A DNA stretch of 64,000 nucleotides, taken from the NCBI GenBank assembly GCA_903882905.1, contig CAIRYW010000027.1, positions 1,031 through 65,030 of the forward strand, read 5' to 3'. A program made the translations under genes and the position numbers. The number at the start of each line of letters is the position of its first letter. Position 1 is the stretch's first letter. A model generated the notes under the pieces. It did no database searches and had not been told where the DNA came from. It saw only the letters and a list, made by a program, of their open reading frames with translations. Origin of the DNA: an uncultured bacterium. Its GTDB lineage: Bacteria > Patescibacteriota > Minisyncoccia > Phycocordibacterales > CAIRYW01. Shown here piece by piece: positions 4,942 to 36,621 of this stretch.

Positions 4942-5919
4942 AAATATAAAGATATCATATCTGTAGAAAATTTACTTGCCTCTTGGCGAGAATTTTTGAA
5001 AGATAAGAAAAAGAAAAAAGATGTTGCTGAATTTTCTTTACATTTTTTAGATAATGTTTTTTATTTGCATAATAGTTTGAAGGATAAAACGTATACTCAT
5101 GGTGAATATAAACCGTTCAAAATCTCCGACCCGAAACCTCGTGATATTCACAAAGCTTCGGTTCGCGATAGGTTACTCCACCATGCAATTTACAGAATTC
5201 TATCCCCATATTTTGATGAGAAATTTATTTTTGATTCTTACTCTTGTCGTCTAGGTAAGGGAACGCATAGGGCAATGAATCGTTTTAGATATTTTGCAAG
5301 AAAAGTTTCCAAAAATCATACAAAAACATGCTGGGTACTAAAGTGTGATATCCGTAAATTTTTTGCCAGTATTGACCACCAAATTTTATTTGAAATTTTG
5401 AAGAAAAATATCAGAGACAAAGATATTGTTTGGCTTTTAATACAGGTGATATCAAGTTTTAACACACAATGCAAAACTAATGTCGGTTTACCTCTTGGTA
5501 ATTTAACCTCACAACTTTTGGTAAATATTTATATGAACGAATTTGACCACTTTATGAAAAGACAACTAAAGGTAAAATATTATATTCGTTATGCCGATGA
5601 TTTTGTGATTCTTTCTGAAGATCAAGTTTACCTTGAGAAACTTACCGTACAAATCTATCAATTTTTAGAACAAAAATTAAAACTCTATTTACACCCAAAC
5701 AAAGTGTTTGTTAAAACTTATGCTTCAGGAGTGGATTTCCTTGGATGGGTACACTTTCCAAATCATAGAGTTTTAAGGACAAGTACAAAAAGGAGAATGT
5801 TCAAAAATATTTCAGCTAAAAATTTTTCCTCTTACACAGGACTTTGTGAACACGGAGACGCTCATGAATTATCACAAGAATGTTATAATATTATTAAGAA
5901 AAAAACTGATGAAATTTAA
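4819..5919 (+). CDS. DGR-type reverse transcriptase
   Basis: RT motifs are present, including the YADD box (YIRYADDFVILS). The DGR-specific motif LPLGNLTSQLLVNIY ([I/L]GxxxSQ replaces QGxxxSP) is present. The N-terminus …ENLLASWREFLKDKKK… matches the DGR RT consensus. The size, about 360 aa, is typical. The true start is uncertain, because the ORF-track start overlaps avd on the opposite strand. Confidence 0.85.
   Translation: MVFWNMISNTKPNQISLFDSLENRSVTTERERERESRRLRHKYKDIISVENLLASWREFLKDKKKKKDVAEFSLHFLDNVFYLHNSLKDKTYTHGEYKPFKISDPKPRDIHKASVRDRLLHHAIYRILSPYFDEKFIFDSYSCRLGKGTHRAMNRFRYFARKVSKNHTKTCWVLKCDIRKFFASIDHQILFEILKKNIRDKDIVWLLIQVISSFNTQCKTNVGLPLGNLTSQLLVNIYMNEFDHFMKRQLKVKYYIRYADDFVILSEDQVYLEKLTVQIYQFLEQKLKLYLHPNKVFVKTYASGVDFLGWVHFPNHRVLRTSTKRRMFKNISAKNFSSYTGLCEHGDAHELSQECYNIIKKKTDEI
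4903..4925. repeat. (GA)n dinucleotide microsatellite, about 11.5 units, 23 nt
   Basis: gagagagagagagagagagagag. It lies in the overlap of the predicted 5' ends of avd (minus strand) and the RT ORF (plus strand). Confidence 0.9.
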
Positions 5920-8182: not shown

Positions 8183-9608
8183 TAATAAAATTGTAAAAAA
8201 AAATAAAGGGCAGGTCGTCATGGTGACCTTAATATTTTTTATTATTATTTCGCTCACACTTATTTCAGGTGGAACCCTGCCGACAGGAAGTCAGGTAAAA
8301 AATTCAAGCGATTTTTTGAAATCAAAACAAAGTTATATTGCCGCTGATGTGGCAAACGATAATGCGTTTTATATGATAAACAAAGGTCACGAAGTTTCAG
8401 TTGGTGCTACTCTTCCATTTTCCTCTGGAGATCTGTCAGATTCAATAGCTATTACAGATTCGGCAAATAAAAAACAAATAATTACGACTGGAAATTCTAC
8501 TTCAAATACTCGGCTTTCAGAAATAGTTTTGTCCCAAAACTTTGGCTTAAATCTTAAATATGCAATTCAAGCTGGAACGGGCGGGCTAACTATGACAAGA
8601 GGGGCTGTGAACGGGGATGTTTATTCAAACGGGAATATTTCTGGGGGAGAGAATTTAACTATTTCAGGTTCAACGACTGTTGCTTATCGAGATTCAACCA
8701 ACGTCGGTAAAATTATAGGAACTTCAAGCGATTTTAATAAGCCACTCAATATTACAGGAAATGCTTGGGCTCATGAAATTGATTTTACAAAAGTTTTGGG
8801 TACTGGTTTTTGTCAGGTAAAAAATTATTTACTTGATTCATCCGGAAATTCTATAAGTTGTGATACTTCAAAGAGCTCCGATCCAACTTCTTTGAATTTT
8901 CCAATTACAGATACAAATATTTCTGATTGGAAAACTGCAGTCTCAAATCAAACGGATATAGTTTCAGATGTTGATACTTATACAGGAGACATAGATGTGG
9001 GTCACACTGGGACAAGTACTTCGATAAAAAAAATATCTGGAAATTTAACTCTAGCTTGCGATAGTGGAAATCCAGCAAACTTTGGAAATCTTTATGTGAC
9101 AGGGAATATTAATGTAAGTAACGGCTGTCTATTTAATGTAGATGCACTCCATGTCGGAGGAAACCTTTCAATTACAGGAGATGGAATTTTAAATTTAGGT
9201 GAGGTGAGTTTTGTTGGCGGAAGTGTAGCACTTTCCGGTTCAGGAAAAATTCAGCTTGATAGTTCTCTTGGAACTAACAGTGGATACATTATTTCTGGAG
9301 GAATTATGGATTTGTCAGGTAGTGGATCGTTAAATGGTTCTGATGTATCTGGAAGTTTTTTGACTCTAATTACAACAAGTTCAAGCGTAAGTACTGTGAA
9401 TGTTTCCAGTGGTGGTTCTGGTGTTGTTATTTTGGCACCAAATGGAGAAGTTAATCTTTCTAATGGTTCGCTAGGCGGAATAGTTGCTAAGACTGTCAAC
9501 ATTGGTGGAGGAGATTTAACTTATGACTCGAATATGGCGAACATAGTTTTTGGAGGAGTTCCTTTTGGAAAGTGGCATATTCTAGATTGGAGTGAAGTTT
9601 TAAATTAA
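8172..9608 (+). CDS. Large PilX-like minor pilin / pilus tip-associated protein with a Gly/Ser/Asn-rich repetitive (beta-helix-like) C-terminal region
   Basis: The N-terminus KGQVVMVTLIFFIIISLTLISG resembles the PilX N-terminal domain. 478 aa with repeated GN.S.TG / GS.SLNGS segments. Confidence 0.5.
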   Translation: MKTDNKIVKKNKGQVVMVTLIFFIIISLTLISGGTLPTGSQVKNSSDFLKSKQSYIAADVANDNAFYMINKGHEVSVGATLPFSSGDLSDSIAITDSANKKQIITTGNSTSNTRLSEIVLSQNFGLNLKYAIQAGTGGLTMTRGAVNGDVYSNGNISGGENLTISGSTTVAYRDSTNVGKIIGTSSDFNKPLNITGNAWAHEIDFTKVLGTGFCQVKNYLLDSSGNSISCDTSKSSDPTSLNFPITDTNISDWKTAVSNQTDIVSDVDTYTGDIDVGHTGTSTSIKKISGNLTLACDSGNPANFGNLYVTGNINVSNGCLFNVDALHVGGNLSITGDGILNLGEVSFVGGSVALSGSGKIQLDSSLGTNSGYIISGGIMDLSGSGSLNGSDVSGSFLTLITTSSSVSTVNVSSGGSGVVILAPNGEVNLSNGSLGGIVAKTVNIGGGDLTYDSNMANIVFGGVPFGKWHILDWSEVLN

Positions 9609-9672
9609 ATTTCTTATATTTTATAAATTAGCTGTCCTAGTTTGAGGTGTGGTTATTTGCTAGAATATCTCT

Positions 9673-11743: not shown

Positions 11744-12238
11744 GTGAAAATCTGTTCATTCAACAAAAAAAAGAAAGAGAGAGTTGGCAGAATGAAAAAA
11801 CGTTATCGTGAAGTTATTAAAAGCATCGCGCTGGTTTGTGCATGTCTCTGGTTAGGCAATCTCCTAATCGACACGAGTCTGCATTTGCAAGGAATCAGGT
11901 TCTTCGCTGGGGCTGCTGGAATGGGCTTGCTTGGTACCTTTATCCTGGCGTGTGTGAATGTTGCGCTGGATTACCTGAAGGCAGGCAAGCCAATTGACCT
12001 CCGCTACATGGTGGACGACGGCTACGTCGTGCGCATCCAGTCGGTTGGGCCAATTGAAAGGGATAGGTCCGGCAAAGACATCGTACCTCTGTTGGTTGAG
12101 CTAAAGCCAGGAGTGACGATTTATTGTCGAGTCACTTATACTCAGGATGTTAAATATAAATCTGGTTACTACTATCGTCACTTTAGTAAAGGGGTTTGGA
12201 AAGATACCCTTGTTCCTATCGAGATGAGTAGGAACTGA
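11744..12238 (+). CDS. Hypothetical membrane protein on a GC-rich islet (about 50-55% GC against about 35% background)
   Basis: ORF with 2 predicted TM helices. Its base composition differs markedly from its neighbours. It is flanked by hairpins at 11616 and 12299. Confidence 0.4.
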   Translation: MKICSFNKKKKERVGRMKKRYREVIKSIALVCACLWLGNLLIDTSLHLQGIRFFAGAAGMGLLGTFILACVNVALDYLKAGKPIDLRYMVDDGYVVRIQSVGPIERDRSGKDIVPLLVELKPGVTIYCRVTYTQDVKYKSGYYYRHFSKGVWKDTLVPIEMSRN

Positions 12239-14570: not shown

Positions 14571-14993
14571 ATGATTGACGATATTGACGAGTTTTTTCGC
14601 TTGTCCTTCACCGACCAGCTTTCTCTTGCTATGGATGATGACTATCCTTGTCCTTGGGATAAGATAGAGATTTCCTCAGGGAGCATGTCGAAGGAGGATA
14701 TTTTAAGTCTCAGAAGGGTAGGAGGAACTGATGACTTAATTTTGAATCGCTTGGTAAAAATGTCTATGCTCGCTGAAGGAAATTTGACGATTTATAGGGA
14801 GTGTTGCGAGAAAGGCAAAGACCAAGCAAGCTCAATTGAGTTAGACATTTTGGAGAATCTAGTTGTTTTGAGAATAAGAGAACTCTTCCCAAAGAAGGGG
14901 ATCTCGCTCAGTGAGAAGTATCACTTTAGGGTGAAAAAATATTCTCTGGAAATATTCAAAAAATCTCCAACAGTTTCAACCCCGCCGAAGTAA
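14571..14993 (+). CDS. Hypothetical protein (GC-richer ORF, no recognisable domain)
   Basis: 140-aa ORF with a possible RBS. Its composition is higher in GC than its neighbours. Confidence 0.35.
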   Translation: MIDDIDEFFRLSFTDQLSLAMDDDYPCPWDKIEISSGSMSKEDILSLRRVGGTDDLILNRLVKMSMLAEGNLTIYRECCEKGKDQASSIELDILENLVVLRIRELFPKKGISLSEKYHFRVKKYSLEIFKKSPTVSTPPK

Positions 14994-17448: not shown

Positions 17449-17841
17449 ATGTCGAATAGGTTCAGCGGGGCATTTTTTTCTTATGATCGCAAGGAAGAAG
17501 TCCAAAAAAGGGAAGTTCATAGTAGTCGTAAAGGAATGGATCAGGCGAGATTTCACCCAAAGAAGGGTTTCATTATTGAATACGATCCTCGGGGGCAATT
17601 TGGAACGATTTTTGTGAGCGAAGGGGAAAAGCGCTGTACTTTTCCATGCAACGCCCGAAAATCGGTGATGATCAAAAGGGGAAAGGGGGGGAAGCCTTAT
17701 CTTTCCAATGAGTTGCGCAAGAAGGTCAAAAGTAGTGTGGGACAAAAAGTGGTGGTTACTGAGGGTTTTTTGAATGGGGACAGTCAGCCATCTGCACTCT
17801 GGGCACCACTCGAAATTTGGACTTCTTGTGGAGGTCAATAA
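17449..17841 (+). CDS. Hypothetical protein (GC-rich ORF)
   Basis: GGAGG 7 nt upstream of the ATG. A 148-aa ORF on the opposite strand (17401-17847) overlaps it completely. Strand choice is uncertain. Confidence 0.3.
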   Translation: MSNRFSGAFFSYDRKEEVQKREVHSSRKGMDQARFHPKKGFIIEYDPRGQFGTIFVSEGEKRCTFPCNARKSVMIKRGKGGKPYLSNELRKKVKSSVGQKVVVTEGFLNGDSQPSALWAPLEIWTSCGGQ

Positions 17842-20914: not shown

Positions 20915-23056
20915 ATGGAACGTGATTATCCTTTAGAAAAAGTTAGAAATTTCGGTATTATTGCGCATATCGATGCGGGTAAGACAACAACTTCTGAGCG
21001 TGTTTTGTATTACACAGGAATGAGTCACAAGATTGGAGAAGTGCACGAAGGAGAAGCTGTTACTGACTGGATGGAACAGGAAAAAGAGAGAGGAATCACA
21101 ATTACTGCAGCGGCTATTACATGTTTCTGGAACCCAACATATATGGGAACTGATAAATCTTTGATGCATCGTTTTAATATTATCGATACACCTGGTCACG
21201 TGGACTTTACAGTGGAAGTAGAAAGATCACTTAAAGTTCTTGACGGAGGAGTTGTGGTTTTTGACGGAGTAGCGGGAGTAGAACCGCAATCAGAAACAGT
21301 TTGGAGACAGGCTGATAAATATCATGTACCAAGAATTTGTTTCATAAACAAACTTGATAGAATTGGAGCTTCATTTGAAAGAAGTTATGCATCTATTCTT
21401 GAAAGATTAAATAAACACGCAGTAAGAATGCAGATTCCTATTGGAGAAGAAGATAAGCATGAAGGAGTAATTGATCTTATGAAAATGAAGGCTTATTACT
21501 TTGAAGGTGATATGGGAAGTACTGTCCGGGAAGCTGAAATTCCTTCTGAATATCTTGCAGACGCAACAAAATACCGAGCAGAACTTGTAGAAAGAATTGT
21601 AGAACACGATGATGATTTAATGACAGCTTTTCTTGAAGGAAAAGAAATTGCAATGCCAGTTCTAAAAGAAACTTTGAGAAAGGCAACAATTGAAAACAAA
21701 ATTTACCCAGTATTTACTGGTTCAGCATTGAAGAACAAAGGAGTTCAATTGATTCTTGATGCTGTTGTTGAATATCTTCCATCTCCACTCGATATTCCTC
21801 CAGTAAAAGGACTTGATCCAAAAACCGGTGAAGAAATTGTCAGACACGCATCAGATACAGAGCCTTTTTCTGCACTCGCATTTAAATTACAGACAGACCC
21901 ATTCGTAGGTCAGCTCACATTCTTTAGAGTTTATTCTGGAACAATCGAATCAGGAACTTATATTTACAACTCAACAACAGGAAACAAAGAAAGACTTGGA
22001 AGAATCGTTCGACTTCAAGCAAACAAAAGAGAAGAAGTAAAAAAAGTTTACGCTGGAGAAATTGCAGCAGCGGTGAGTTTGAAAGAAGCAAAAACATCTC
22101 ACACTTTTTGTGACGAAAATCAACCGATTATTCTTGATCCAATTAAATTTGCTGAACCGGTTGTATCCCTCCGAATTGAACCAAAAACAAAAGCTGATCA
22201 AGAGAAAATGGGTATGGCTTTGAAAAAACTTGGAGATGAGGATCCAACATTTAGAATTTCTTCAAACACAGAAACAGGAGAAACAATTATTTCTGGAATG
22301 GGAGAGCTTCACTTGGAAATTATGATTGATCGTATGAAGAGAGAATTTGCCGTTGAAGCAAACGTTGGTAAGCCTCAGGTAGCATACAGAGAAACAATTT
22401 TGGGAACTGCAGAAGCAGAACACAAATACATCAAGCAATCTGGAGGAAAAGGACAATACGGTCACGTTAAACTTAATATCAAACCACTTCAACCTCTTGA
22501 AGAAGGTAAAAAACTTCCTAAGAACGTTAAGAGAGAAGAAGGGTTTGAATTTATTGATTCAATTAAGGGAGGAGTTATTCCACAAGAATTTATTCCTGCT
22601 GTTATGAAAGGTGTTAAAGAGGGAATGGATAGAGGAATTGTTGCTGGTTTCCACTTAACAAATATTTCTTGTGAACTTACTTATGGTTCTTACCACGATG
22701 TGGACTCATCTGAAATTGCATACAAAATCGCCGCTTCTCAAGCTTTTCAAGACGCAGCAAAAAGAGCTCGCCCAGTTATTCTTGAGCCAATCATGAAAAT
22801 TGAAGTTGTTACTCCAGAAAAATTCATGGGAGACGTAACAGGAAATCTAAACTCAAAGAGAGCTCAAATTATTTCTATGGGTGAGAGAGGTCAAAACAAA
22901 GTTCTTGTTGCAACGGTGCCGCTTTCTGAAATGTTTGGTTACACAACTTCTCTTCGATCACTTACAGAAGGACGCGCTTCATCAACAATGGAATTTGATC
23001 ACTACGATGTAGTTCCAGCAAACATTGAAAAGGTGATTGTGGAATCAAGAAAGTAA
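20915..23056 (+). CDS. fusA: Elongation factor G
   Basis: [27 protein letters not shown]-domain motifs. 713 aa. Confidence 0.95.
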
Positions 23057-23076
23057 AATAATTAAAGTTGAAAAAA

Positions 23077-23108
23077 GCCCCGTTCGCCTAGGCAGACGGG
23101 GTTTTTTT
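23077..23108 (+). terminator. Rho-independent terminator after fusA
   Basis: agccccgttcgcctaggcagacggggt followed by T7. Confidence 0.65.
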
Positions 23109-23144
23109 CTTGTATTTTTTTCTAATTACTTTAATATAAGTTTT

Positions 23145-23585
23145 ATGAATATTGTGTTCCTTCCGTCGGTTAGCCTGGCTTCTTTGGCCTTAACTCTTCT
23201 CGCAATGCTCGGTGTGTCTGTTGTGATTCTTTTCATCCCAAACCCTATTACTGTGTGGAAGCGCTTCCATCCAGTTAAACAAGAAGAAATGCCAGATCGC
23301 TTCTGGTATAAAGTTCTCGAGGTGATTCGAAAAGATGGCGCAATCATATTACATCTCAGGGAGAACCGTTTTCCTGGAAAGGAATTGTTTTGCACCCTGC
23401 GGCAAGAAGATGGGTGCGAAAGGATTGAGTACCGCGAGCACGTTCTTTCAAAACATAGTCTTGATCTATGTGTTTCATTTTTATCTCACCGCCGCATAGA
23501 CGGAGAGACGATATGGTGCATGGATTTTGACACGAAAGAAAGTTGCAATATTTCGCACGTACTTTGGCGGTTTAATAATCCCTGA
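23145..23585 (+). CDS. Hypothetical small membrane protein (GC-rich region)
   Basis: Internal ATG after the fusA terminator. N-terminal TM (VFLPSVSLASLALTLLAMLGVSVVILF). Other-strand ORFs are low-complexity. Confidence 0.3.
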   Translation: MNIVFLPSVSLASLALTLLAMLGVSVVILFIPNPITVWKRFHPVKQEEMPDRFWYKVLEVIRKDGAIILHLRENRFPGKELFCTLRQEDGCERIEYREHVLSKHSLDLCVSFLSHRRIDGETIWCMDFDTKESCNISHVLWRFNNP

Positions 23586-23702
23586 GTCACATCGAATTGA
23601 AATCTCGTAAATTTCAAACCCGGATTTAGTCCGGTATTTTTTTTGCCAAAATTGACTTTTTTGTTGAATAAAGATAATTTTACTTTGGTAAATTTGAAAA
23701 TC

Positions 23703-23963
23703 ATGAAAACCAATCCTAATGAAAGAGAGTTGCACGAGTTTGGTGCACTCTGTGCAAAACTCGGAGGAATCTTCGGGTCTGACCTGCATAGAATCCTCGA
23801 ATCAATCAATGGGTCTTTTGAGGCAAAAAGGCTCATTGGTCTTGCGCTTGGACAAGAAAAAAACGAGGTGTTTCTAAAAAAGGTTGATCCTGATGACATG
23901 TCTTTCGTAGGGCTTTGTTTCAGCGACATCTATGCTCCGCTGTGCGAAGTTTTCTTCAGTTAA
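23703..23963 (+). CDS. Hypothetical small protein
   Basis: ORF MKTNPNERELHEFGALCAKLGG…. A competing minus-strand ORF is low-complexity. Weak call. Confidence 0.2.
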   Translation: MKTNPNERELHEFGALCAKLGGIFGSDLHRILESINGSFEAKRLIGLALGQEKNEVFLKKVDPDDMSFVGLCFSDIYAPLCEVFFS

Positions 23964-24330
23964 TAATTCTCTGTTCCTTCCAATCTGGCGACCATTCAAT
24001 GGCGTCATTTTTTTTGCAAAAAAAATCGCCAGAGAAATTATTTTTTCTTATGGCGCTTTAGTTTTTTGGGATCGTGAACCCATTTGTATCTTAGTGCCTC
24101 ATGAATGGTGAAGATACAATAGGTTTCTCTAGGGAATTCAATTTTTTCAGGAATTTTTTTGAAGGAACTGAACCTTCTTGCTTTTTTGGGTTTTTCAACC
24201 CGACCCCTTTTTTTACCGAGAAACTTTTCAGTTTTTAAGAACATTACCACGTAAAAAATTTCCATAGCTAAGAATATTCTATTAAATTTAATCCCAATAA
24301 GCGAATAATAATTTTTTTTGTATAAAAAAT

Positions 24331-24349
24331 GGAGCGCTGTTGGCGCTCC
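24331..24349 (-). terminator. Rho-independent terminator for the minus-strand tyrA/ACT gene
   Basis: ggagcgcc aaca ggcgctcc, followed by T-run on the minus strand. Confidence 0.55.
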
Positions 24350-24967
24350 TTAGGAAACAACTTTTATAGAAACATCTCGCCACTTTTCGATTTCTTCCAG
24401 CGTAAGTCGCACAGCGTCCGAAGATTTTGAGGATTCGAAACTGATTGAAAATTGTAGCTGGTTTCCGTCGATTGCAGCAAAGTTGAAACCTGTCAGGTTG
24501 ATGTCTCGTTTACCGAATGCTCTGAGTATTCTTTCTCCAAGTCTTGGTTTGTCGTCTGCCTTGGAGTACTCGAGAATGATTGAGTTCTTGCCGTAGATCG
24601 TTTTGGTTACAGCAATCTGACGTTGAAAAAGGGTGTCGGCTTCTTTGATCACATCGTGACCAAAGTGGGCTTTAGCTTTTGCAAAGAGATTGCGTAGTCC
24701 TCGGCGATTTTTCTTTTCAATCATCCGCACAAGTCTGGTGTCCAGTTTGACTCTCCTTTGAAAAGTTTCCAGCGAAACTGGATTTTCGAGGAGCATGTCG
24801 ATGTAGAGATCGGCATTATGGTTCAGAAGTCGTCCCATGAGCGAGAACATCACTCGGTAGAACGGACTTGTGAAAGCCAGACTTTTTTGGACTGAGATTC
24901 CCATCTCTGCGATCATTACCGCATTGATGAGGTTACTCATATGAGGGTTAGTTTGCACGCCCTGCAT
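24350..24967 (-). CDS. C-terminal part of a prephenate dehydrogenase-like protein plus ACT regulatory domain. It is in frame with, and separated by a single TAA from, the upstream ORF
   Basis: ACT-like C-terminus (…RLGERILRAFGKRDINLTGFNFAAIDGNQLQFSISFESS…). Same reading frame as 24980-26071. Confidence 0.5.
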   Translation of the reverse strand: MQGVQTNPHMSNLINAVMIAEMGISVQKSLAFTSPFYRVMFSLMGRLLNHNADLYIDMLLENPVSLETFQRRVKLDTRLVRMIEKKNRRGLRNLFAKAKAHFGHDVIKEADTLFQRQIAVTKTIYGKNSIILEYSKADDKPRLGERILRAFGKRDINLTGFNFAAIDGNQLQFSISFESSKSSDAVRLTLEEIEKWRDVSIKVVS

Positions 24968-24979
24968 ATAAATATCATG

Positions 24980-26071
24980 TTAGGTTGGATTGCTCCACTC
25001 GATTTTCATCTCAGTTCTTGCGAGCAGATTAACCACCCAAGTTTTCCATTCAGGTTTTTTAAGCCTTGCTGGACAAACAACCATTGTTTGGTCGTTAAAC
25101 GACAGACTTGGGGCAAACATCGGGTGAAACCCGATCACTTGAGCTTTGCTTTTGAGCATTTCGCGTACCGCGGGACTTTTGACGGAAGTGATATCCATCG
25201 CAAGTTTGTCCTCGGTCAGGTATTTGGCTACCGATCGGATAACACTGGGTGTTTTTCTAATCGGCAAAGCGAAAGCAACCACATCAGCCTTTCTCGCCAC
25301 ATCTGAATTTTTCAGACCGGTCTTTTCTTTGGGATCAGACCAAATGACGTTTAAACCAATTCCAGTAGCGAATTTCTCGAGTGCTTTTCCAAATTTCCCG
25401 TGGCCGATGATGCCAAAGGTCAAAGCTTTTACTTCGGCTTTGTTTTCCAGAAGTTGGAAGGTTGTTATGTTCCTTTGAATGTCCTGGATATTTTCGGCAA
25501 GCACACGAAGTCCGTAGGGTTTTGCTGCACGTTTAGGTGAGATTGATCCAAACGCTTTAGTTTTGCCGGAAACGAATTTCGCCGCATAGCCTGTGGAATC
25601 GCAGTTACTTCTTTTGTTTGCGGTGATACCGATGCTGTCGAGGAATTTTCCGCACTGACCGATTGCCTCTTCTTTTGAGAAGACTCTTTCCAACTGGTCG
25701 ATTGAGGTGATGTTTTTTGGGACAAGCAAGCAGTGATTGACCCGAAGTTTGAGAGTGTCGACGACTGAAAAATCGTAACCCAAACCACGAAGTCTATTTA
25801 CCTCATCCGTTACGCTTTTTACTTCTCCTTTTGTAGAGTTGTGGATCGGGATGACTCCAAATCCAGGGCTTTCAGATAGTTGCTTGAGCAGGTTGTTGTG
25901 ACTCCCGCAAAAAACAATCTCATACTCACCTTTTTTCCATCCCCGTCGGCGGATGAACTCACAAGCTGCATCATGCCCATTTGTGAAGGCATCAAGTACT
26001 AATATTCGTTTTTTCATAGGTTTTTCTTTGTTTCCTGATGTAAATGAACTGCTCCGTCTGGAGCAAAACAC
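24980..26071 (-). CDS. Prephenate dehydratase domain fused to prephenate/arogenate dehydrogenase NAD-binding domain (PheA-TyrA-like). It terminates at an in-frame TAA
   Basis: PDT signature (…GVIPIHNSTKGEV…, …LRVLAENIQD…) followed by TyrA-like GIIGHGKFG Rossmann and …VIGFHPMFAP…. About 45% GC. Confidence 0.6.
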   Translation of the reverse strand: MFCSRRSSSFTSGNKEKPMKKRILVLDAFTNGHDAACEFIRRRGWKKGEYEIVFCGSHNNLLKQLSESPGFGVIPIHNSTKGEVKSVTDEVNRLRGLGYDFSVVDTLKLRVNHCLLVPKNITSIDQLERVFSKEEAIGQCGKFLDSIGITANKRSNCDSTGYAAKFVSGKTKAFGSISPKRAAKPYGLRVLAENIQDIQRNITTFQLLENKAEVKALTFGIIGHGKFGKALEKFATGIGLNVIWSDPKEKTGLKNSDVARKADVVAFALPIRKTPSVIRSVAKYLTEDKLAMDITSVKSPAVREMLKSKAQVIGFHPMFAPSLSFNDQTMVVCPARLKKPEWKTWVVNLLARTEMKIEWSNPT

Positions 26072-26252
26072 TTGCTTCAGAGGTTTATGTTTGAATATTG
26101 ATGTTTAGTACCTTAAAAGTCAATTATTTCGGAAAACGTTTGACATTAAAAAACAAAGTAGTAGCATTTAAATATAAATGATTAACAAATTTTATTTTCA
26201 GTATTTCTTTAAGAACTGCCCGAAAGGCTAGGTTTTTTGATTTTTAATCTTA

Positions 26253-26279
26253 AAGCCCCGCCTTTCAGGCGGGGCTTTT
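26253..26279. terminator. Bidirectional terminator (agccccgcc tttca ggcggggct), reverse complement of the element at 18563
   Basis: Identical arms in opposite orientation. Confidence 0.65.
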
Positions 26280-26313
26280 GTTTGTCGGAAAGTGCGTCTA
26301 ATATCAGGCTCAC

Positions 26314-26748
26314 TTGTCGGGAAACAAAAAAATGAAAAATATTTTAATTTTGAAGGTTAGTGGGATCGCTGACCTTCGACAGTACATTGCCGCCATTGGA
26401 GAATTTCTTCAAGGTATTTCCTTGTTTATTGTCCCTGCAGACTCGCAGGTACAACTGAATGGGGACGTTCCGGATGGCGTGGTTGTTTTAAAGCATGAGG
26501 AAGAAGGTCGTGAGTGGAGGATTATCCAGGTCGGCAATACCTGCCGATTTGAAAAGCCACCAGTCACCGTGCCGATTGTCCACTTATACAGACCTGCGTT
26601 TTCTACTATTATCAAGTTGCTCGAGCGCTTGAATTCAGAGGACGAAGAGAAAATATCTGGAGTCTATCTGGAGAATTCTCTGCCAGGAATTGCCGGGTCT
26701 ATTGCTTCGGCCCTTGTGAAATTTGGTCCTCAGCCCAAACAACCCTAG
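26314..26748 (+). CDS. Hypothetical protein (GC-rich, about 50%)
   Basis: 144-aa ORF. The likely start is MKNILILKV at 26332. It is followed by two hairpins. Confidence 0.35.
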   Translation: MSGNKKMKNILILKVSGIADLRQYIAAIGEFLQGISLFIVPADSQVQLNGDVPDGVVVLKHEEEGREWRIIQVGNTCRFEKPPVTVPIVHLYRPAFSTIIKLLERLNSEDEEKISGVYLENSLPGIAGSIASALVKFGPQPKQP

Positions 26749-26777
26749 TTAGCGGTCCCTCGACCGCTATTTTTTAT

Positions 26778-26817
26778 ACCCAGCACCTTCTTTTTTTCCA
26801 AAAAAGAAGGTGCTGGG
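26778..26817. repeat. Palindromic element cccagcaccttcttttttt cc aaaaaagaaggtgctggg (18-bp stem)
   Basis: Shares its 'cccagcacctt…aaggtgctggg' arms with the hairpin at 7143-7183. Confidence 0.7.
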
Positions 26818-27040
26818 TTGACATCTTTTTGACTATTGTGATAGTATGACCATCACGCAATTTGCGGTGTTTTTTGTATTTTAAATAGATTCAAATGGCA
26901 CCAAGTTTGCTATAAGAAGGTAAAAAAATCTTCGCCCGAAGCGAAGATACGGTTTCTAAGTTACTTCTGAAATGACCTTCGCGCTTATTTCAGAGGAGAA
27001 TTAGAACCAAAATTATTAAAGTAACTATTAAATAAATCAT

Positions 27041-28231
27041 ATGGCAGAAGCTTTTGATAGATCAAAGCCTCACGTAAACGTAGGTACAATTGGTCACGTA
27101 GACCACGGAAAGACAACTCTTACCGCGGCTATTTTGAGTGTTCTTAGTAGAAATGGAAACGACGTAAAACTTAAGGCAGTTGATCAAATTGACAACGCGC
27201 CAGAAGAAAAGGCTAGAGGAATTACAATTAACCTTTCACACAACGAGTATTCAACTGCAACTCGTCACTACGCTCACATTGATGCTCCTGGACACGCCGA
27301 CTACATCAAAAACATGATTACTGGTGCTGCCCAAATGGACGGTGCAATTCTTGTTATTGCTGCAACTGACGGTGTTATGCCACAAACAAGAGAACACGTT
27401 CTTCTTGCAAAACAAGTAGGTGTGCCAAAGATGATTGTTTTCTTAAACAAATGTGACATGGTTGATGATAAAGAACTTATTGACCTTGTTGAAGAAGAAG
27501 TAAGAGAGCTTCTAGAGAAGCAAGGTTTTGACAAAGATTGTCCAGTTATTAAGGGTTCAGCTCTTAAAGCTCTTGAATCAAAGGACAACAATGATGAATG
27601 GGCAAAGAAAATCCTAGAACTCGTTGATGCTCTTGATACATACATTCCAGTTCCTGTGCGCGAAACCGACAAACCTTTCCTTATGCCTATTGAAGATATT
27701 TTCTCAATTGAAGGTAGAGGAACAGTGGTTACAGGAAGAATTGAAAGAGGGCTTATCAAAGTTGGTGAAGAAGTTGAAATTATCGGTATCAAACCAACAG
27801 CAAAGACTACAGTTACTGGAATTGAAATGTTCAATAAACAACTTACTGAAGGAATGGCTGGAGATAACGCCGGAATACTTCTAAGAGGTACAAAGAAAGA
27901 AGATTTGACACGTGGTCAGGTTCTAGCAAAGACCGGTTCAGTAACACCACACACAGAATTCACATCAGAAGTTTATATCTTGAAGAAAGAAGAAGGAGGA
28001 AGACACACACCATTCTTTACAGGATACAAACCACAGTTTTACATCAGAACAACTGACGTAACAGGAGAAGTAACACTAAATGCTGGTGTAGAAATGGTTA
28101 TGCCAGGAGATACAGTTACATTTAACGTTAAATTGGTTGCGCCTGTAGCCCTTGAGGAAAAGCAAAGATTTGCTATCCGCGAAGGTGGAAAGACTGTAGG
28201 TGCTGGAGTTGTCACAAAAGTGATCAAGTAA
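27041..28231 (+). CDS. tuf: Elongation factor Tu
   Basis: [22 protein letters not shown] motifs. 396 aa. Confidence 0.95.
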
Positions 28232-30327: not shown

Positions 30328-31170
30328 ATGAAAAGCTACAGACCATACACAAAATCAAGAAGACACATGACGAACGTTTCTTTTAGAGGCGTTTTGACTA
30401 CGAATGAACCCACAAAATCTTTGACAAAAGGTTTCCAGAGATCAGTTGGTAGAAATAACTTGGGAAGAGTAACAACTCGCCACAAGGGAGGAGGTCACAA
30501 AAGACTTTTCAGAGATGTTGATTTTACTTACAACAAAAAAGATATCCCAGCTAAAATTGCATCAATAGAATACGATCCAAACAGATCAGGTTTCATTGGA
30601 CTTGCAGTTTATCGCGACGGAGAAAAAAGATATATTCTTATTCCAAAATCAGTAAAAGTTGGTGATACTTTTGTAGTTTCAGAAAAAACAGACATCAAAC
30701 CAGGAAACAGAATGAGCTTGAAAAACATTCCTGTAGGTGCTTTTGTTTATAACATTGAAATTAAACAAAATGGAGGAGCAAAACTTGCAAGATCAGCTGG
30801 AATTTATGCTGAAGTTGTTGCTCAAGATGAAGGATTTACTTCAATTAAAATGCCATCAACTGAAGTTAGAAAAATTGTTGACGCTTGTTTTGCCTCACTA
30901 GGTGAAGTATCAAACGAAGAACACCATCTTCGAAACTTCGGAAAAGCTGGAAGAAGCAGATGGATGGGTATCAAACCAACCGTTCGCGGAACTGCTATGA
31001 ATCCAGTAGACCACCCATACGGAGGAGGAGAAGGAAGACAAGGACGAGGAACACGAAGAGCAAAATCAGTTTACGGAAAGCCAACAGGAAAGGGACAGAA
31101 ATCAAGAACACCAAAGAAATACTCAAACAAATTCATTGTTTCAAGAAGAGTTGTTGGGAAGAAACGATAA
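30328..31170 (+). CDS. rplB: Ribosomal protein L2
   Basis: …HKGGGHKRLFR…, …PVDHPYGGGEG… motifs. Confidence 0.95.
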   Translation: MKSYRPYTKSRRHMTNVSFRGVLTTNEPTKSLTKGFQRSVGRNNLGRVTTRHKGGGHKRLFRDVDFTYNKKDIPAKIASIEYDPNRSGFIGLAVYRDGEKRYILIPKSVKVGDTFVVSEKTDIKPGNRMSLKNIPVGAFVYNIEIKQNGGAKLARSAGIYAEVVAQDEGFTSIKMPSTEVRKIVDACFASLGEVSNEEHHLRNFGKAGRSRWMGIKPTVRGTAMNPVDHPYGGGEGRQGRGTRRAKSVYGKPTGKGQKSRTPKKYSNKFIVSRRVVGKKR

Positions 31171-31437: not shown

Positions 31438-32310
31438 ATGGCAAATACATTAAATGCTTTAAATAAAATCAAAAATCTAAGGGAAAGGTATTACAAAGTA
31501 TCAACTGGCAAAGAATCTTTATTAAAACTTATAAGCGAGACAGAAATTCCTGAACAAGTTTATAACTCTAACGCTATAGAAAACAGCACTCTTTCTCTTG
31601 AGGAGACAGAAAAAATACTTTTACAAATTGATCTTGATCGCTATATCTCAGAGCGAGAAATATTTGAAGCAAAAAATCTTGCACGAGTTGTTTCATATAC
31701 AGAAAAAAAAGCCAAAGAGCAAGAGCTTACTCTTGATGTCATTTTATCACTTCATAAAATGCTTATTTCAAATATTCGAGATGATATTGCTGGAAGATTT
31801 CGTATTAATAATGAATATGTTCGTGTTGGAAGCCATATTGCTCCAAAGCCAGCGGAAGTAATATCTCGATTAGAAAAAACAATTGCAGAATATAATGCCT
31901 CGAGCCATGAAAATATTGTGAAGCGTATTGCAAGATTGCATTTAGAGTTTGAATACACACATCCATTTTGTGACGGAAACGGAAGAATTGGTCGTGTTAT
32001 AAATAATTATTTACTTATACGAGAAGGATTTGTACCGATTAATATTAAATTCATCGATAGAAAAAAATATTATGATGCATTCAGAGAGTTTGATGAAAAA
32101 GGTAGTGCATCAATAATGGAGGAAATTGTTGCAAAAGCTATTACGAATAGTTATCACAAGAGACTTGCTTATTTAGAGGAAAAAGAGATTGTAACTCTTT
32201 TTGAATATTCCAAAAGAAAAAAAATATCTCATTCAAATTTAATTAATAAAGCAAATCGACAAACTATTGAAGCTTTTCTCGAAAAAGGTATTTGGAAAAT
32301 TGGTATTTAA
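31438..32310 (+). CDS. Fic-domain protein (putative AMPylase) with N-terminal auto-inhibitory motif (class II Fic)
   Basis: Fic core HPFCDGNGRIGR (HPFx[D/E]GNGRxxR). N-terminal SNAIEN fits the inhibitory [S/T]xxxE[G/N] motif. Confidence 0.85.
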   Translation: MANTLNALNKIKNLRERYYKVSTGKESLLKLISETEIPEQVYNSNAIENSTLSLEETEKILLQIDLDRYISEREIFEAKNLARVVSYTEKKAKEQELTLDVILSLHKMLISNIRDDIAGRFRINNEYVRVGSHIAPKPAEVISRLEKTIAEYNASSHENIVKRIARLHLEFEYTHPFCDGNGRIGRVINNYLLIREGFVPINIKFIDRKKYYDAFREFDEKGSASIMEEIVAKAITNSYHKRLAYLEEKEIVTLFEYSKRKKISHSNLINKANRQTIEAFLEKGIWKIGI

Positions 32311-32399
32311 AAACCACTAATCACTATCCATTACACCCGCACACTATCTACTATATTCAATCCATTGCTTTTATCTGTGGGGGGGGGTAAAATCTAACT

Positions 32400-32855
32400 A
32401 TGTTAAAAAACTTTTTCTTAGACTGGAAGGGAAAATTATTATTAATTTGTTTACTAGGTATTGGAGGATCAGTTTTATATTTTTCAGATACTCAAATTTC
32501 TAATGCCCAAGCAATGGGAGGTGGGGGATATAGTTGTCCTCCTCCCACTGTTGGTTGGAATGGGACATGTATTTGTCCTGTGGGGGCTGATGCAGCACTT
32601 CAAAAAAGATGCGACCAAGCTCTTCAGGGTAATAAAACTATTGATGCACCCACAAAAAGAATTCCTATCACATCTATAGCTCCTACTTTAAAATCACAAT
32701 GGAGTTATAACGTAAGTTTTGATGCCAATGATTTTAAAGCTGCCCCAACTGATGCACATGGTAATCCTTATGGTTCTAGCCGTATTCCCTCATTGAGTAA
32801 TGTTATAGATTTTAAGAATCTAACGATCGGTATTGTTGTGGGAGTTAAATTTTAA
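32400..32855 (+). CDS. Hypothetical secreted/membrane-anchored small protein
   Basis: N-terminal hydrophobic segment LLLICLLGIGGSVLYF. Cys-containing. 151 aa. Confidence 0.4.
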   Translation: MLKNFFLDWKGKLLLICLLGIGGSVLYFSDTQISNAQAMGGGGYSCPPPTVGWNGTCICPVGADAALQKRCDQALQGNKTIDAPTKRIPITSIAPTLKSQWSYNVSFDANDFKAAPTDAHGNPYGSSRIPSLSNVIDFKNLTIGIVVGVKF

Positions 32856-32866
32856 TTTAATAAAAA

Positions 32867-34165
32867 ATGAAAAATAATTATTCAAAATTAGTTTCAATAG
32901 CAACCCTTGTTTTATGTATCTTAGTATTTCCATCTTTATCTTCTGCTCAAACCGTTAATAATTTCTCCGTTAAAAATCTAAATTATTATTATGGTACAGA
33001 CCCAAAAACCAAAATAAAAGATGCGGTGGTGACTTTTGATTTAGATATAACCGCAACAAGTTCAGACTTCAAGTTCTACAAAGACGGACTTGCGGTCATT
33101 AGTTCTGCAAGTTCTGTGGGGGATACAAGTATACAGACCTATACACCAAACATGGTTGATAATGGTAGTTATTATACGATTCATGCGGGAGATACAGGGA
33201 CTTTAAACATTATGACCACGTGGGACGCAAAATACGTACCCGTACTTAATTCTTCAACAAAGTTCTATTTTGCTTTTTCTGAAAAAAATCTTCCTATTAC
33301 TATACCACCAATCACCATCCTCACCCCAACCAATGGAACCAACTGGAAGATAGGATCAAATCAATCATTTGTACTTGCGAAGAATAACATCCCAACAACT
33401 GCCTATATGCAAGTGAGTCTTACACCATCTTCTGGTGGTTTTGGTGCCATGCTCTCAATTTCTCTAACAAATTCTAGTTCTAACACTAACTTTCCGTTTG
33501 CTGTGCCAACAAGTCTCCAATCAGGAGGACTTTTAAGACAACTTACTCCCGGAGCATATAAATTAAAAGTAGTTTTCTATGATAAAGGTTTTTGTTCATC
33601 TTGTGGTCAACCCGCAACTAATATCATAGGACAATCAGATGGTAATTTAACTGTAAATATTTTAGCTGCAAGCTGTACACCAAAACCAACTCTGAATTGT
33701 ACGGCAGATTATAGTCCAGTTTGTGGTTCTGATGGAAAAACCTATGGTAATGCTTGCCAAGCTACAAAATTATGTGTGACGTATACAAACGGAGCTTGTG
33801 CTCCTGCACCATCTCCCACCCCAACCACTACTCCAACTCCTACTCCAACACCTTTACCATCTCCTTCTCTCGGACAATGTTATTCTGCAACACCTAAAAA
33901 TTATCCAGCTTGTTGCAATATAAATAATGATTCAAGTGCAAAATCTATTTGGCAATCTGGGGTTGCAGGTAACTGGGCGAAGTTTCCAAAAAGTTGTAGT
34001 GAGTATCCCGGTTATACAATTACGCCATCAAAAACAATAACTCCTCCAGCACTCAACACAATTTCTTTGAATCAAAACAGCGCACCAACTCAAACCGCAA
34101 GTGCATATGATTCTATTAAGATTCTTCTCAATCAGATTTCAAACACTTTGGATTCTCTAAAATAA
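32867..34165 (+). CDS. Secreted protein with C-terminal Kazal-type serine-protease-inhibitor domain and Pro/Thr-rich linker
   Basis: Signal peptide (…VFPSLSSAQT). Kazal signature C..C.ADYSPVCGSDGKTYGNACQA..LC. Followed by PSPTPTTTPTPTPTP. Confidence 0.7.
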   Translation: MKNNYSKLVSIATLVLCILVFPSLSSAQTVNNFSVKNLNYYYGTDPKTKIKDAVVTFDLDITATSSDFKFYKDGLAVISSASSVGDTSIQTYTPNMVDNGSYYTIHAGDTGTLNIMTTWDAKYVPVLNSSTKFYFAFSEKNLPITIPPITILTPTNGTNWKIGSNQSFVLAKNNIPTTAYMQVSLTPSSGGFGAMLSISLTNSSSNTNFPFAVPTSLQSGGLLRQLTPGAYKLKVVFYDKGFCSSCGQPATNIIGQSDGNLTVNILAASCTPKPTLNCTADYSPVCGSDGKTYGNACQATKLCVTYTNGACAPAPSPTPTTTPTPTPTPLPSPSLGQCYSATPKNYPACCNINNDSSAKSIWQSGVAGNWAKFPKSCSEYPGYTITPSKTITPPALNTISLNQNSAPTQTASAYDSIKILLNQISNTLDSLK

Positions 34166-34200
34166 AAATAAAGATTAAATCGAAGTAGTATCAAAAAACA

Positions 34201-34230
34201 AAAAACCGCCAAAAAACGGTTTTTTGTTTT
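34201..34230 (+). terminator. Terminator-like hairpin (aaaaaccg ccaaaaaa cggttttt)
   Basis: It overlaps the ORF-track start of the next gene, whose true start is therefore probably the ATG at 34257. Confidence 0.5.
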
Positions 34231-35993
34231 TTGATAATTATGAGATAATTTTACTAATGAATTCAAAGAATTTATTTAGATCGTCTTTAATTACATTTTC
34301 TCTTTTTGTTATTTTCTCTTTTCTTCTTATTCCAAAAACTGCTTCTGCGGATAATGGTTTTTTTAGTTTTTTAAATTCTTTTTTTCCACAATCAAGTCAA
34401 TCACAGACTCCTTCTTTAAGTAGTGAAGATTTAGCAAAACTTATTCAACCTTCAATTGTACGTATTGTCAGAGAGACAAAAGGTAATGTTGTTTTACATT
34501 CCGATTTTGCTCTTGATTACTTGAATCTAAAGGTTCTGACTGTACCCTTAAGTAAACCAATTAATATTCCTGTTGACGATATAGTTACTGGAACTGGTTT
34601 CATGATTACTCCAGAAGGACACATAATGTCTAATTCGCACGTTGTTTCAAGTCAAGAATCTGTCAATAATGTAGTAGCCCAGTTAATACTCTATCTAATT
34701 AAAAAAGATGGATCCAAACTTACCGTTGATGAGCAAAATACAATAATTAATAATGCAAGCAGTACTGAAGGATTAAAAGCATATGAAAAATTAGGAACAG
34801 ATTTAACAGATTCAATGTTGAAGGATGTTACTCTTGAGGCAACTACTACAATTACTGTCTTAAATCCAAAATCCACTGCAGATAATTTAGCGGATTTTAT
34901 TAAAGACGGATTTCCAGCAACAGTTGTTAGTGTAAATGATAATTTTTCAAAAGATCAAAGAGATGTTGCTATAATAAAGATTAATAAGGATAATCTCCCT
35001 GCCATTCCGGTTTCAAGTGATGTTTCGACTTCAAGTTTAGTTACGGGCCAAAAAATATTTGCTTTTGGTTTTCCTTCTACGGCAGATCTTAATAAAAAAC
35101 TTGGACATGATATTGTCGTGCCAACATATACTTCTGGCACCATAAGCGCATTAAAATCCTCTGATGCTGGAGATTTTCAAATAATTGAAACAGATACAAA
35201 AATATCTTCTGGTTCGAGTGGAAGCCCGGCTTTTGATGAAAATGGAAATGTGATTGGAATCATGACATATGCAACAAGCAATTCAGATAGTAACGGCGAT
35301 ACTTTTGCTTTCGCCTTACCAATTGGAGTAATCAAGCCAATTGTTGATAGCGCTAATGTTATTTCTGGACCAGGGGCTCTCTATGAGCACTTTACAAAGG
35401 GTCTAAATTTACTTTCAAAAAAACATTGTGCATTGGCAATAACTGAATTTGAATCAGCAAAAAATACTAATGGAGAATTTCCTGTTAATACAAGTTTCAT
35501 TGATTCATATATGAATCAATGTAAGACAATGCAAGCTAATGGATTAGCTCTTGATACAGAGCAGCAGCAGTTTCTTCAAAACATAAAACCTTATCAATTA
35601 TGGGTTCCAGTTTTGTTAGTAATATTTATTTTCGTAATATGCCTTATCTTTGTAATTGTTTTCTTTTCAAAAAAAATGAAAAAAGAAGAAGAGGAAATAT
35701 ACGCACTAAGAGCTAGAGGTCAAATGTCATCAGTTAGTGTTCCGCCGACAATAACTCCTGTTCTGATTCCAAAAGTTGAAGTAAAAGTTGAAAAAAAGCC
35801 AGAAGAAGTTAGTGTAGAAAAAAATACACCGCCAGCTGTAAAAGGGAGGGTAGAAATGATAGTAGATTATATAAATAAGAGTAAGACAGAGAATAAAGAA
35901 CTTGGATTAACTGTAATTGATCTAAGAAGCCAAGGATATAGCGATGATGAAATTCAGCAAGGATTTAATTTGGTAAATAAAGTAGACCTTTAA
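34224..35993 (+). CDS. Membrane-anchored trypsin-like (S1/HtrA-like) serine protease with cytoplasmic C-terminal tail
   Basis: His (GTGFMITPEGHIMSNSHVV), Asp (DVAIIKI) and Ser (GSSGSPAF) catalytic-triad contexts. N-terminal signal/TM and a second TM (LWVPVLLVIFIFVICLIFVIVFF) before a charged tail. Confidence 0.7.
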   Translation: MFFDNYEIILLMNSKNLFRSSLITFSLFVIFSFLLIPKTASADNGFFSFLNSFFPQSSQSQTPSLSSEDLAKLIQPSIVRIVRETKGNVVLHSDFALDYLNLKVLTVPLSKPINIPVDDIVTGTGFMITPEGHIMSNSHVVSSQESVNNVVAQLILYLIKKDGSKLTVDEQNTIINNASSTEGLKAYEKLGTDLTDSMLKDVTLEATTTITVLNPKSTADNLADFIKDGFPATVVSVNDNFSKDQRDVAIIKINKDNLPAIPVSSDVSTSSLVTGQKIFAFGFPSTADLNKKLGHDIVVPTYTSGTISALKSSDAGDFQIIETDTKISSGSSGSPAFDENGNVIGIMTYATSNSDSNGDTFAFALPIGVIKPIVDSANVISGPGALYEHFTKGLNLLSKKHCALAITEFESAKNTNGEFPVNTSFIDSYMNQCKTMQANGLALDTEQQQFLQNIKPYQLWVPVLLVIFIFVICLIFVIVFFSKKMKKEEEEIYALRARGQMSSVSVPPTITPVLIPKVEVKVEKKPEEVSVEKNTPPAVKGRVEMIVDYINKSKTENKELGLTVIDLRSQGYSDDEIQQGFNLVNKVDL

Positions 35994-36267: not shown

Positions 36268-36621
36268 ATGTCACGATCAGTCAAAAAAGGACCATATGTC
36301 GACGAAAAGCTTCTAAAGAAGATTGCCGGCAAAAAACCACAGGAATCTGGGGTTATTAAGACTTGGGCGAGAGCAAGCCAGATTGCACCAGAAATGGTGG
36401 GATTTATCTTTGGCGTCCACAACGGAAAATCACATATAGAAGTTTTTGTCACCGAGGATATGGTAGGTCACCGACTCGGTGAATTTTCTTTAACAAGAAA
36501 ATTCGTTAAACACGGAGGAAAAATGCAAAAAGAACAAGATTTAGCAAAGAAAGATGCTGAACTTGCAGCTGCAAAAAGTGCTAAAGCAGCAACCGAAACT
36601 CCAGTCGGAGCTAAAAAATAA
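36268..36621 (+). CDS. rpsS: Ribosomal protein S19 (with Ala/Lys-rich C-terminal extension)
   Basis: [19 protein letters not shown]… classic S19 N-terminus. Confidence 0.9.

Follow-up and report, generated by a model that had tools for sequence, protein, structure and literature searches.

A PDT-PDH-ACT fusion gene of Parcubacteria interrupted by a single private stop codon in one metagenomic contig

Fusions of TyrA with other enzymes of aromatic amino acid synthesis were catalogued in a classic survey, which listed AroQ-TyrA, TyrA-ACT, TyrA-AroF, TyrA-REG and the Archaeoglobus TyrA-AroQ-PheA-ACT protein; the order of prephenate dehydratase (PDT), prephenate dehydrogenase (PDH) and ACT domain was absent from it (PMC1173090). 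Proteins of the TyrA-AroQ-PheA-ACT kind are known from the archaea Archaeoglobus fulgidus and Ca. Huberarchaeum (PMC1173090, PMC11237513). In this work, a gene of the PDT-PDH-ACT order, interrupted by one in-frame TAA, was analysed in a stretch of 64,000 nucleotides (hereafter the window) of contig CAIRYW010000027.1, which comes from an uncultured bacterium of the candidate phyla radiation (CPR). It was concluded that the fusion is a real variant of the known TyrA/PheA fusions, that it is a conserved and uniform family of Parcubacteria, and that the lesion in the window comes down to a single private G>T transversion, the gene being intact in all other respects. Literature searches on the aromatic pathway in CPR, Patescibacteria and Parcubacteria returned no paper describing the PDT-PDH-ACT family.

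The gene appears as two minus-strand open reading frames (ORFs), 24980..26071 and 24350..24967, which translation placed in the same frame with only the TAA between them. Read on the minus strand, the surroundings of the stop are AAT CCA ACC TAA CAT GAT ATT TAT ATG CAG GGC (N P T stop H D I Y M Q G). The upstream ORF opens with GTG at its 26071 end, and an ATG at 26017 gives MKKRILVLDAF. This ATG is almost certainly the true start, since it is where every homologue starts and since residues 1-17 of the GTG-extended form had a predicted local distance difference test score (pLDDT) below 50; the 18-residue extension was disordered in the AlphaFold2 (AF2) model. The joined frames (24983..26017 and 24350..24979) encode PDT, a TyrA-type PDH with its N- and C-terminal domains, and an ACT-like tail. 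The earlier note on this DNA had read the same-frame split, its coordinates, the domain content, a GC content of about 45% and a CPR-like host from the sequence, and all of these were borne out, the domain content by Pfam, the family alignment and the AF2 model, and the GC content by a measured 44.6% (35.5% for the window). Homologues of 555-560 aa aligned to the gene product end to end. The product was 100% identical to an intact protein (P0096, 573 aa), which corresponds to the two ORFs of the window joined by a Glu at the stop position. Within the 64 kb, only this gene, which is single in relatives, was split by one stop; the other same-frame ORF pairs were ordinary neighbours. The coordinates of all features are collected in Table 1.

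Table 1. Features of the interrupted PDT-PDH-ACT gene and of the DAHP synthase gene of related genomes (window positions unless a contig is named)
Feature	Position	Strand	Remarks
Whole PDT-PDH-ACT gene	24350..26017	-	555 codons and terminal TAA (24350..24352); interrupted at codon 346
PDT catalytic domain, aa 11-193	25439..25987	-	Pfam PF00800, 1.7e-30, 106.6 bits (cutoff 25.2)
TyrA NAD-binding (Rossmann) domain, ~aa 198-343	24989..25426	-	GxGxxG (GIIGHGKFG), TSVK, HPMF
TyrA dimerisation/substrate domain (PDH_C), aa 344-446	24680..24988	-	Cut by the stop after its second residue
C-terminal ACT-like regulatory domain, ~aa 479-555	24353..24583	-	Pfam matches in the family and fold of the model
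Premature TAA, codon 346	24980..24982	-	All relatives examined have GAA here (Glu of 'EHD')
In-frame ATG, start of 205-aa ORF	24965..24967	-	Possible re-initiation site, four codons (12 nt) past the stop
Intrinsic-terminator-like hairpin	24331..24349	-	Strong; GGAGCGCCAACAGCGCTCC followed by a T-run, directly 3' of the gene
Sigma-70-like promoter match	26094..26123	-	TTGACT / 18 nt / AATATT, ~75 nt 5' of the ATG; a consensus match only, the match count being not above shuffle expectation
DAHP synthase	L007 11984..12994; L036 3124..4134; L037, L038, L039 10001..~11026		Adjoins the fusion gene in 2 of 5 contigs

Pfam was run on the joined 555-aa product with a residue placed at the stop. The N-terminal domain, for which the earlier note had named Pfam annotation as a check, was identified as PDT, and it also matched the PDTs of PDB entries 2qmx, 4lub and 6vh5, with a Foldseek alignment to 2qmx over 196 columns. 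The PDH_N match covered aa 239-339 (2.5e-14, 53.5 bits, cutoff 26.5), PDH_C (PF20463) scored 28.4 bits (2.1e-6, cutoff 22), and the alignment to H. influenzae TyrA (2pv7) reached 1.7e-30 in phmmer. No Pfam match to ACT was found in the window's own protein at E<=0.1; in the family, ACT (PF01842) was matched in 25 of the 30 aligned members (best 1.6e-9). PDT, PDH_N and PDH_C were each matched in all 30, and a chorismate mutase (CM_2) in none of them. The AF2 model was built on the 30-sequence alignment (mean pLDDT 89.4, predicted template modelling score (pTM) 0.77) and formed a beta-alpha-beta-beta-alpha-beta unit at the C terminus (residues 497-572 of P0096). A Foldseek search with the model matched TyrA 2pv7 (template modelling (TM) score 0.80, root-mean-square deviation 3.2, 278 columns, E 4.8e-21, 28% identity), as well as TyrA-ACT 5uyy (~395 columns), PDT 2qmx and 6vh5, and many other TyrA entries.

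Among described enzymes, the T-protein-like TyrA of E. coli and H. influenzae (AroQ-PDH, 2pv7) was the best match to the PDH part in both sequence and structure, with the HPMF(G/A)P, TSVK, EHD and SP(I/F)YR motifs in common. However, T-protein carries an N-terminal AroQ chorismate mutase and no ACT, whereas the protein described here has PDT at its N terminus and ACT at its C terminus, and no chorismate mutase was detected in it. Residues G220, G223 and G225 (GxGxxG), S296 (TSVK), H316 (HPMF) and R406 (SPFYR) were invariant in the 30 sequences and aligned to the motifs of 2pv7; the invariant columns of PDH_C were the H-D pair (H365, D366) and SPFYR (S402-R406, P0096 numbering). We take these residues to be those of the nucleotide fold, the catalytic His (E. 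coli H197, A. aeolicus H147), the substrate Arg (E. coli R294, A. aeolicus R250) and the Ser (A. aeolicus S126) of TyrA. The PDH part is a putative NAD-dependent prephenate/arogenate dehydrogenase of the 'HPMF' T-protein-like subgroup.

The PDT part is homologous to the PDT domain of PheA (PDT-ACT; 2qmx, 6vh5, 2qmw) and keeps several of its motifs. An invariant T203 lies within N-x-T-T-F (NITTF here), which aligned to NITRF of 2qmx, and this residue is presumably the catalytic Thr of the TRF motif, T278 of the E. coli P-protein. The Asn of ENS (N78, invariant), S-H-x-x-A-x-x-Q-C and S-T-x-x-A-A were likewise retained. Three observations leave room for a departure from the canonical enzyme. The Glu of ENS was variable, being H here and Y, R, C, Q, S, T, K or F in other members; the Arg of TRF was replaced by Thr in 28 of the 30 members; and the NCBIfam equivalog models for both enzymes, scored on the two fragments separately, stayed far below their cutoffs (for TyrA, with the N-terminal fragment, PRK08818 93 bits against 411 and PRK11199 65 bits against 273; for PDT, 96 and 76 bits against 219 and 359). 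By these scores, the protein is a member of both superfamilies and of no named orthologue group. Because of the three observations, the activity or the substrate of the PDT domain could differ from those of canonical PheA, and the model also matched GqqA (7am0), a PDT-like protein whose deposition names it a quorum-quenching acylase, which indicates that a PDT fold is no guarantee of dehydratase activity. The arrangement differs from PheA as well. In PheA, ACT with an ESRP motif follows directly after PDT, whereas here PDT is separated from the ACT-like tail by ~280 aa of TyrA, and the tail reads INLTG(F/I)N(F/S)(A/V) instead of INLTxIESRP.

By homology, the PDT domain would convert prephenate to phenylpyruvate by dehydration and decarboxylation, and the PDH domains would perform the NAD+-dependent oxidative decarboxylation of prephenate to 4-hydroxyphenylpyruvate or of arogenate to tyrosine. 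The ACT domain would sense Phe and/or Tyr. An intact protein of this kind would partition the branch-point intermediate between Phe and Tyr.

Among 5.8 billion proteins searched, 94 homologues were found, nearly all of them 552-561 aa long, 43-85% identical and of the same Pfam architecture; the named ones came from Parcubacteria (Buchananbacteria, Taylorbacteria, Paceibacterota). A scan of species-representative genomes, seeded with the peptide QVVGLHPM, found the family in 19 CPR metagenome-assembled genomes (MAGs), those of Staskawiczbacteria and Azambacteria among them. When 1.84 billion cluster representatives were searched exhaustively with HMMER, about a dozen full-length PDT-PDH-ACT clusters at 50% identity emerged. 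The gene is native to these bacteria, and a one-off acquisition is not upheld by so many homologues.

The nature of the stop was examined by comparison with intact copies. The relatives with 85% (L001/L002) and 71% (L003) protein identity both have GAA at codon 346. The position is occupied by Glu in 26 of the 30 aligned members and is followed by the invariant His-Asp, and the resulting EHD motif of the family aligned to the same motif in H. influenzae TyrA. The intact P0096 protein was present on three contigs from three samples, and the split products on one contig only, of 70,557 bp. One of the three intact contigs (L005) matched the window over 5499 bp with a sole mismatch at 24982. Another (L004) matched over 9102 bp with two mismatches, at 24982 and at 28265 in the tuf-rpsJ spacer; at both, the minus strand reads T in the window and G in L004. 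The third carried the identical intact protein. A comparison with L001 revealed no frameshifts and, apart from codon 346, no stops in the gene, the downstream half included, and the codon differences were 61 synonymous and 24 non-synonymous 3' of the stop and 118 and 59 5' of it. An exact-pattern scan of JGI metagenomes for further alleles gave only a relative of the L002 type, with GAA; a lookup of the split product (P0003) and a lookup of the window's pgk product, made for further conspecific DNA and its mismatch spectrum, gave no match. Neither further disabling changes nor relaxed constraint, as expected of a decaying pseudogene, were found. Since the lesion is single, absent from otherwise identical contigs and unaccompanied by other damage, it was concluded that the gene is not in decay.

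Two explanations of the T at 24982 were given most weight. The TAA could be a real and very recent nonsense allele fixed in the sampled population, which we consider an even chance and which is a lean, being put slightly above an error in the consensus. This reading is favoured by an otherwise clean assembly, in which the 64 kb contain no other split genes. One or two differences per 5-9 kb between samples are normal population variation, and single-nucleotide variants between samples are commoner than consensus errors at normal short-read coverage. Several points weigh against an allele: all other copies agree on G; both differences from the 9102-bp contig are G>T on the minus strand, one and the same change, as in oxidative guanine damage; and in a gene under purifying selection, a nonsense change at so highly conserved a codon has little a priori chance of rising to consensus frequency.

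The other explanation is a sequencing, amplification or assembly artefact, by which the organism's gene would be intact with GAA and the T would be a wrong consensus base, arising possibly from an oxidised guanine or, in a library of low coverage or one that was amplified, from an error early in amplification. This falls a little short of an even chance. It accounts for the G in two independent contigs from other samples that are otherwise identical and for the intact protein on the third, for the shared direction of the change at 28265, for a lesion at so conserved a Glu, and for a gene without other signs of disuse. However, the absence of split genes in the rest of the window indicates that the assembly is not error-prone, consensus errors are the rarer of the two kinds of event, and two differences are too few for a damage signature. 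Hence the possibility of a sequencing error, raised in the earlier note, stays a fair alternative in view of the intact copies with G, with the real allele placed slightly higher. In either case, only this one base separates the gene from otherwise identical intact copies. The stop should be regarded as an allele of the strain or as an error rather than as gene decay, and it cautions against pseudogene calls from a single MAG. In the 596-kb contig of the 71%-identity relative (L003), tuf was called as two pieces of 218 and 182 aa (8456..9650), which suggests a frameshift or an assembly error in that contig and gives another such caution.

If the TAA is real, the product would end after the Rossmann domain, since the stop falls two residues into PDH_C, at the PDH_N/PDH_C boundary. 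It would keep PDT and lose the substrate/dimerisation and ACT domains. Dehydrogenase activity and regulation would probably be lost, because the H-D pair, the domain with the SPFYR Arg and the ACT domain are missing, and any PDT activity of the truncated product would be unregulated. Re-initiation at the ATG four codons on could yield the C-terminal 205 aa. It was therefore considered whether the split is tolerated, with termination, restart at this ATG and reassembly of the halves into a working enzyme. The in-frame ATG 12 nt past the stop and the break at a domain boundary speak for it. However, the invariant His-Asp of EHD would be missing from a restarted product, none of the family members is naturally split at this point (shorter matches look like contig-end fragments), and no obvious Shine-Dalgarno-like sequence was seen by eye upstream of the ATG. 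We regard a tolerated split as very improbable.

Full-length protein might still be made by programmed readthrough, which the earlier note had also suggested, or by reassignment of UAA. Nothing speaks for this beyond the stop being in frame. TAA terminates 42 of the 51 window genes, and TAG (5) and TGA (4) also serve as stops. The relatives and the conspecific contigs have GAA, so there is no conserved stop; the window contains no tRNA genes and hence no suppressor tRNA, and no Rfam element at gathering score lies nearby. Recoding is excluded by the stop usage and by the conspecific GAA, and this explanation is effectively refuted.

The genomic context bears on the claim that a horizontally acquired gene was caught in decay. 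Flanked by fusA (20915..23056) and tuf (27041..28231), which run on the other strand, the gene belongs to a 4-kb island in which no other ORF had a Pfam match. A fusA-gene-tuf or S10-operon slot is common to L001 (85% identity), L003 (71%), L004, L005 and L023, the most divergent member (43%). Other family members lie in unrelated contexts, and when the ORFs of 22 family loci were clustered, the recurrent neighbours were limited to fusA with ribosomal genes (4 loci) and a single unknown ORF. The nucleotide identity to L001 was 81.6% for the gene and 87.6% for fusA, and the greater divergence of the gene between the same genomes fits vertical descent within the clade.

The composition of the gene is unusual at synonymous sites. 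GC at third codon positions (GC3) was 0.46-0.48, against 0.17-0.30 for almost all other window genes (fusA 0.23, tuf 0.28), and GC at positions 1 and 2 was normal (0.44 against 0.45). The bias is common to the whole fusA-tuf island. Across 20 loci of the family, GC3 was 0.42-0.72, usually 0.1-0.3 above the flanks in AT-rich hosts and below them in GC-rich ones.

A non-native aromatic-pathway gene decaying to a pseudogene would explain why the gene and its whole island (23037..26748) have a GC3 of 0.40-0.48 against ~0.23 elsewhere in the genome, why an excess is seen in most family loci and why the remaining island ORFs differ among relatives. Nevertheless, this explanation is highly unlikely, and its 'in decay' part is largely refuted. 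Identical conspecific contigs lack the sole lesion, the downstream half bears the pattern of purifying selection, the gene position is kept in relatives down to 43% identity, the family is widespread in Parcubacteria with a uniform architecture, and the divergence relative to fusA is that of vertical descent and not of recent transfer. Thus recent transfer and decay were dropped from the earlier interpretation, and the atypical synonymous-site composition in most host genomes was retained. Because of this composition, the gene may have an older lateral origin or may have spread laterally within Parcubacteria; the GC3 oddity may reflect older or repeated lateral spread, slow amelioration or synonymous-site selection.

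Further ORF islands with a GC3 of 0.40-0.50 in a genome of ~0.2-0.3 were seen at 11744..12238, 14571..14993 and 17449..17841, besides 23037..26748. The small ORFs of all these islands had no Pfam match, and the largest island fills the normally tight fusA-tuf junction. On the plus strand of this island, a promoter-like TTGACA / 16 nt / TAGCAT (26140..26167) precedes a GC-rich hairpin of 12 bp and its T-run (26252..26278). The segment 26140..26290, 5' of the ORF 26314..26748, may encode a small RNA of ~100 nt or serve as a leader/attenuator. Rfam gave no family at gathering score in 22900..27200, and its sub-threshold matches were driven by the hairpin.

The origin of the fusion was considered from the architectures found on the same TyrA subgroup by HMMER and Pfam. 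These were PDH alone (~275 aa), PDH-ACT (~355 aa, 33 representatives among the best 150 HMMER matches), PDH-PDT-ACT (~560-580 aa, 45 representatives), PDH-CM-PDT-ACT (CM, chorismate mutase; P0240 of Ca. Huberarchaeum, 654 aa), PDT-ACT-PDH-ACT (P0238 of a Planctomycetota MAG, 764 aa) and PDT-x-PDH (P0359). In a tree of PDH cores, a rough neighbour-joining one without support values, the CPR fusions grouped with PDH-ACT and PDH proteins, outside the PDH-PDT-ACT group. The free-standing PDH-ACT proteins (~355-365 aa; P0233, P0234, P0237) aligned in one stretch to profile positions ~200-550 with 300-360 bits and were 40-47% identical in the PDH core; their solved analogue is TyrA-ACT of Bacillus anthracis (5uyy). 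They differ from the protein described here by the absence of the N-terminal PDT. Because of this one-stretch alignment and the grouping in the tree, the simplest history suggested by the sequences is that a PDT catalytic domain without its own ACT was added before a TyrA-ACT protein. An insertion of TyrA into PheA between PDT and ACT had been prompted by a 26-aa match of the tail to the PheA ACT (E 0.001) and by Foldseek alignments spanning both ends of PheA; it was rejected as less parsimonious.

The archaeal fusions and the PDH-PDT-ACT proteins of ~560-580 aa also carry PDH, PDT and ACT on one polypeptide, and their PDH cores are related (~290-320 bits); the source of the Huberarchaeum protein is likewise an ultra-small episymbiont. 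However, in these proteins PDH comes first, so the order is reversed, the four-domain form contains the chorismate mutase that the 30 members lack, and all fall outside the CPR-fusion clade in the PDH-core tree. In Methanomicrobiales, a tyrA > pheA > aroA string (L028, L033) places the two enzymes side by side, with a PDH core 41% identical to that of the fusion (5e-56). These are, in contrast, separate genes in the opposite order, their PDT parts are only 23% identical, and they are not uniquely closest, other PDH and PDH-ACT proteins reaching 43-47%. An origin of the PDH core from methanogen hosts was also considered, as the non-CPR matches of the species-representative genome scan were mostly TyrA of Methanomicrobiales (Methanolinea TyrA 41% identical). 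It was dropped as unspecific, because that scan had been seeded with QVVGLHPM and the unbiased HMMER search gave many proteins at 43-47%.

The earlier note had regarded the gene as foreign on the premise that CPR genomes generally lack the aromatic pathway. [quoted passage not shown] A DAHP synthase with an FXD regulatory domain was found directly after the fusion gene in a Staskawiczbacteria MAG (L007/L021) and in L036. Its homologues, of 65-82% identity, occur in MAGs of Patescibacteria and Pacebacteria, and the neighbourhood NrdD-NrdG-ComEC-DUF6938-...-HtrA-DAHPS-ClpB was conserved in five contigs. One of the contigs with this gene, L037, stems from two samples that also gave intact P0096 contigs, and its base composition is that of the window; its DAHP synthase has a GC3 of 0.48 against 0.22-0.29. 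The ComEC of L037 is only 28% identical to that of the window, and membership in the same genome could not be shown. The stable DAHP synthase, which sometimes stands beside the fusion gene, weakens the premise of a foreign gene. On the other side, tblastn with archaeal EPSP (5-enolpyruvylshikimate-3-phosphate) synthase, shikimate kinase and shikimate dehydrogenase and with two CM_2 domains detected no EPSP synthase, shikimate kinase or dehydrogenase, or chorismate mutase in ~0.5 Mb of CPR flanks and the window, a search that covers flanks and not whole genomes, and reading of the window ORFs revealed no other aromatic-pathway genes.

It was also considered that Parcubacteria retain the pathway at its two ends alone, with a DAHP synthase of the feedback type and the fused exit enzyme, as a symbiont-specific salvage branch point and a laterally circulating module. 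If the seven middle steps were missing, the fusion would act on host-derived chorismate, prephenate or arogenate. The PDH-CM-PDT-ACT fusion of Huberarchaeum, a DPANN episymbiont, would be a parallel, and the compositional anomaly would mark a module in lateral circulation, both genes being GC-rich at synonymous sites. We hold this view as speculative and rather unlikely. A uniform PDT-PDH-ACT enzyme, sometimes paired with DAHP synthase, is in any case at odds with a simple picture of Parcubacteria as having no aromatic metabolism. If the intermediate steps are truly absent, the family offers a testable handle on the metabolites that episymbionts take from their hosts; if they are present, some Parcubacteria can make Phe and Tyr.

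Additionally, several other features of the window were recorded. A complete diversity-generating retroelement (2191..5919) lies between pilB-like and pilC-like genes. Its target ORF (2191..4068, 625 aa) contains the variable repeat (3927..4066), and the 140-nt template repeat (4381..4520) differs from the variable copy by 24 mismatches, all of them A in the template and G, T or C in the variable copy; the reverse transcriptase ORF (4819..5919) matched PF00078 at 4e-26. The S10 operon is broken between rplB (30328..31170) and rpsS (36268..36621) by ~5 kb, and these two genes are adjacent in the relative L003. The insert region (31438..35993) encodes a Fic-domain protein (31438..32310; PF02661, 1.3e-21) and contains three ORFs, 32400..32855, 32867..34165 and 34224..35993, whose N termini are hydrophobic and resemble signal peptides. 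A SLOG/LOG-like protein (PF18306 SLOG cluster4, 1.1e-31) is encoded at 58569..59204.

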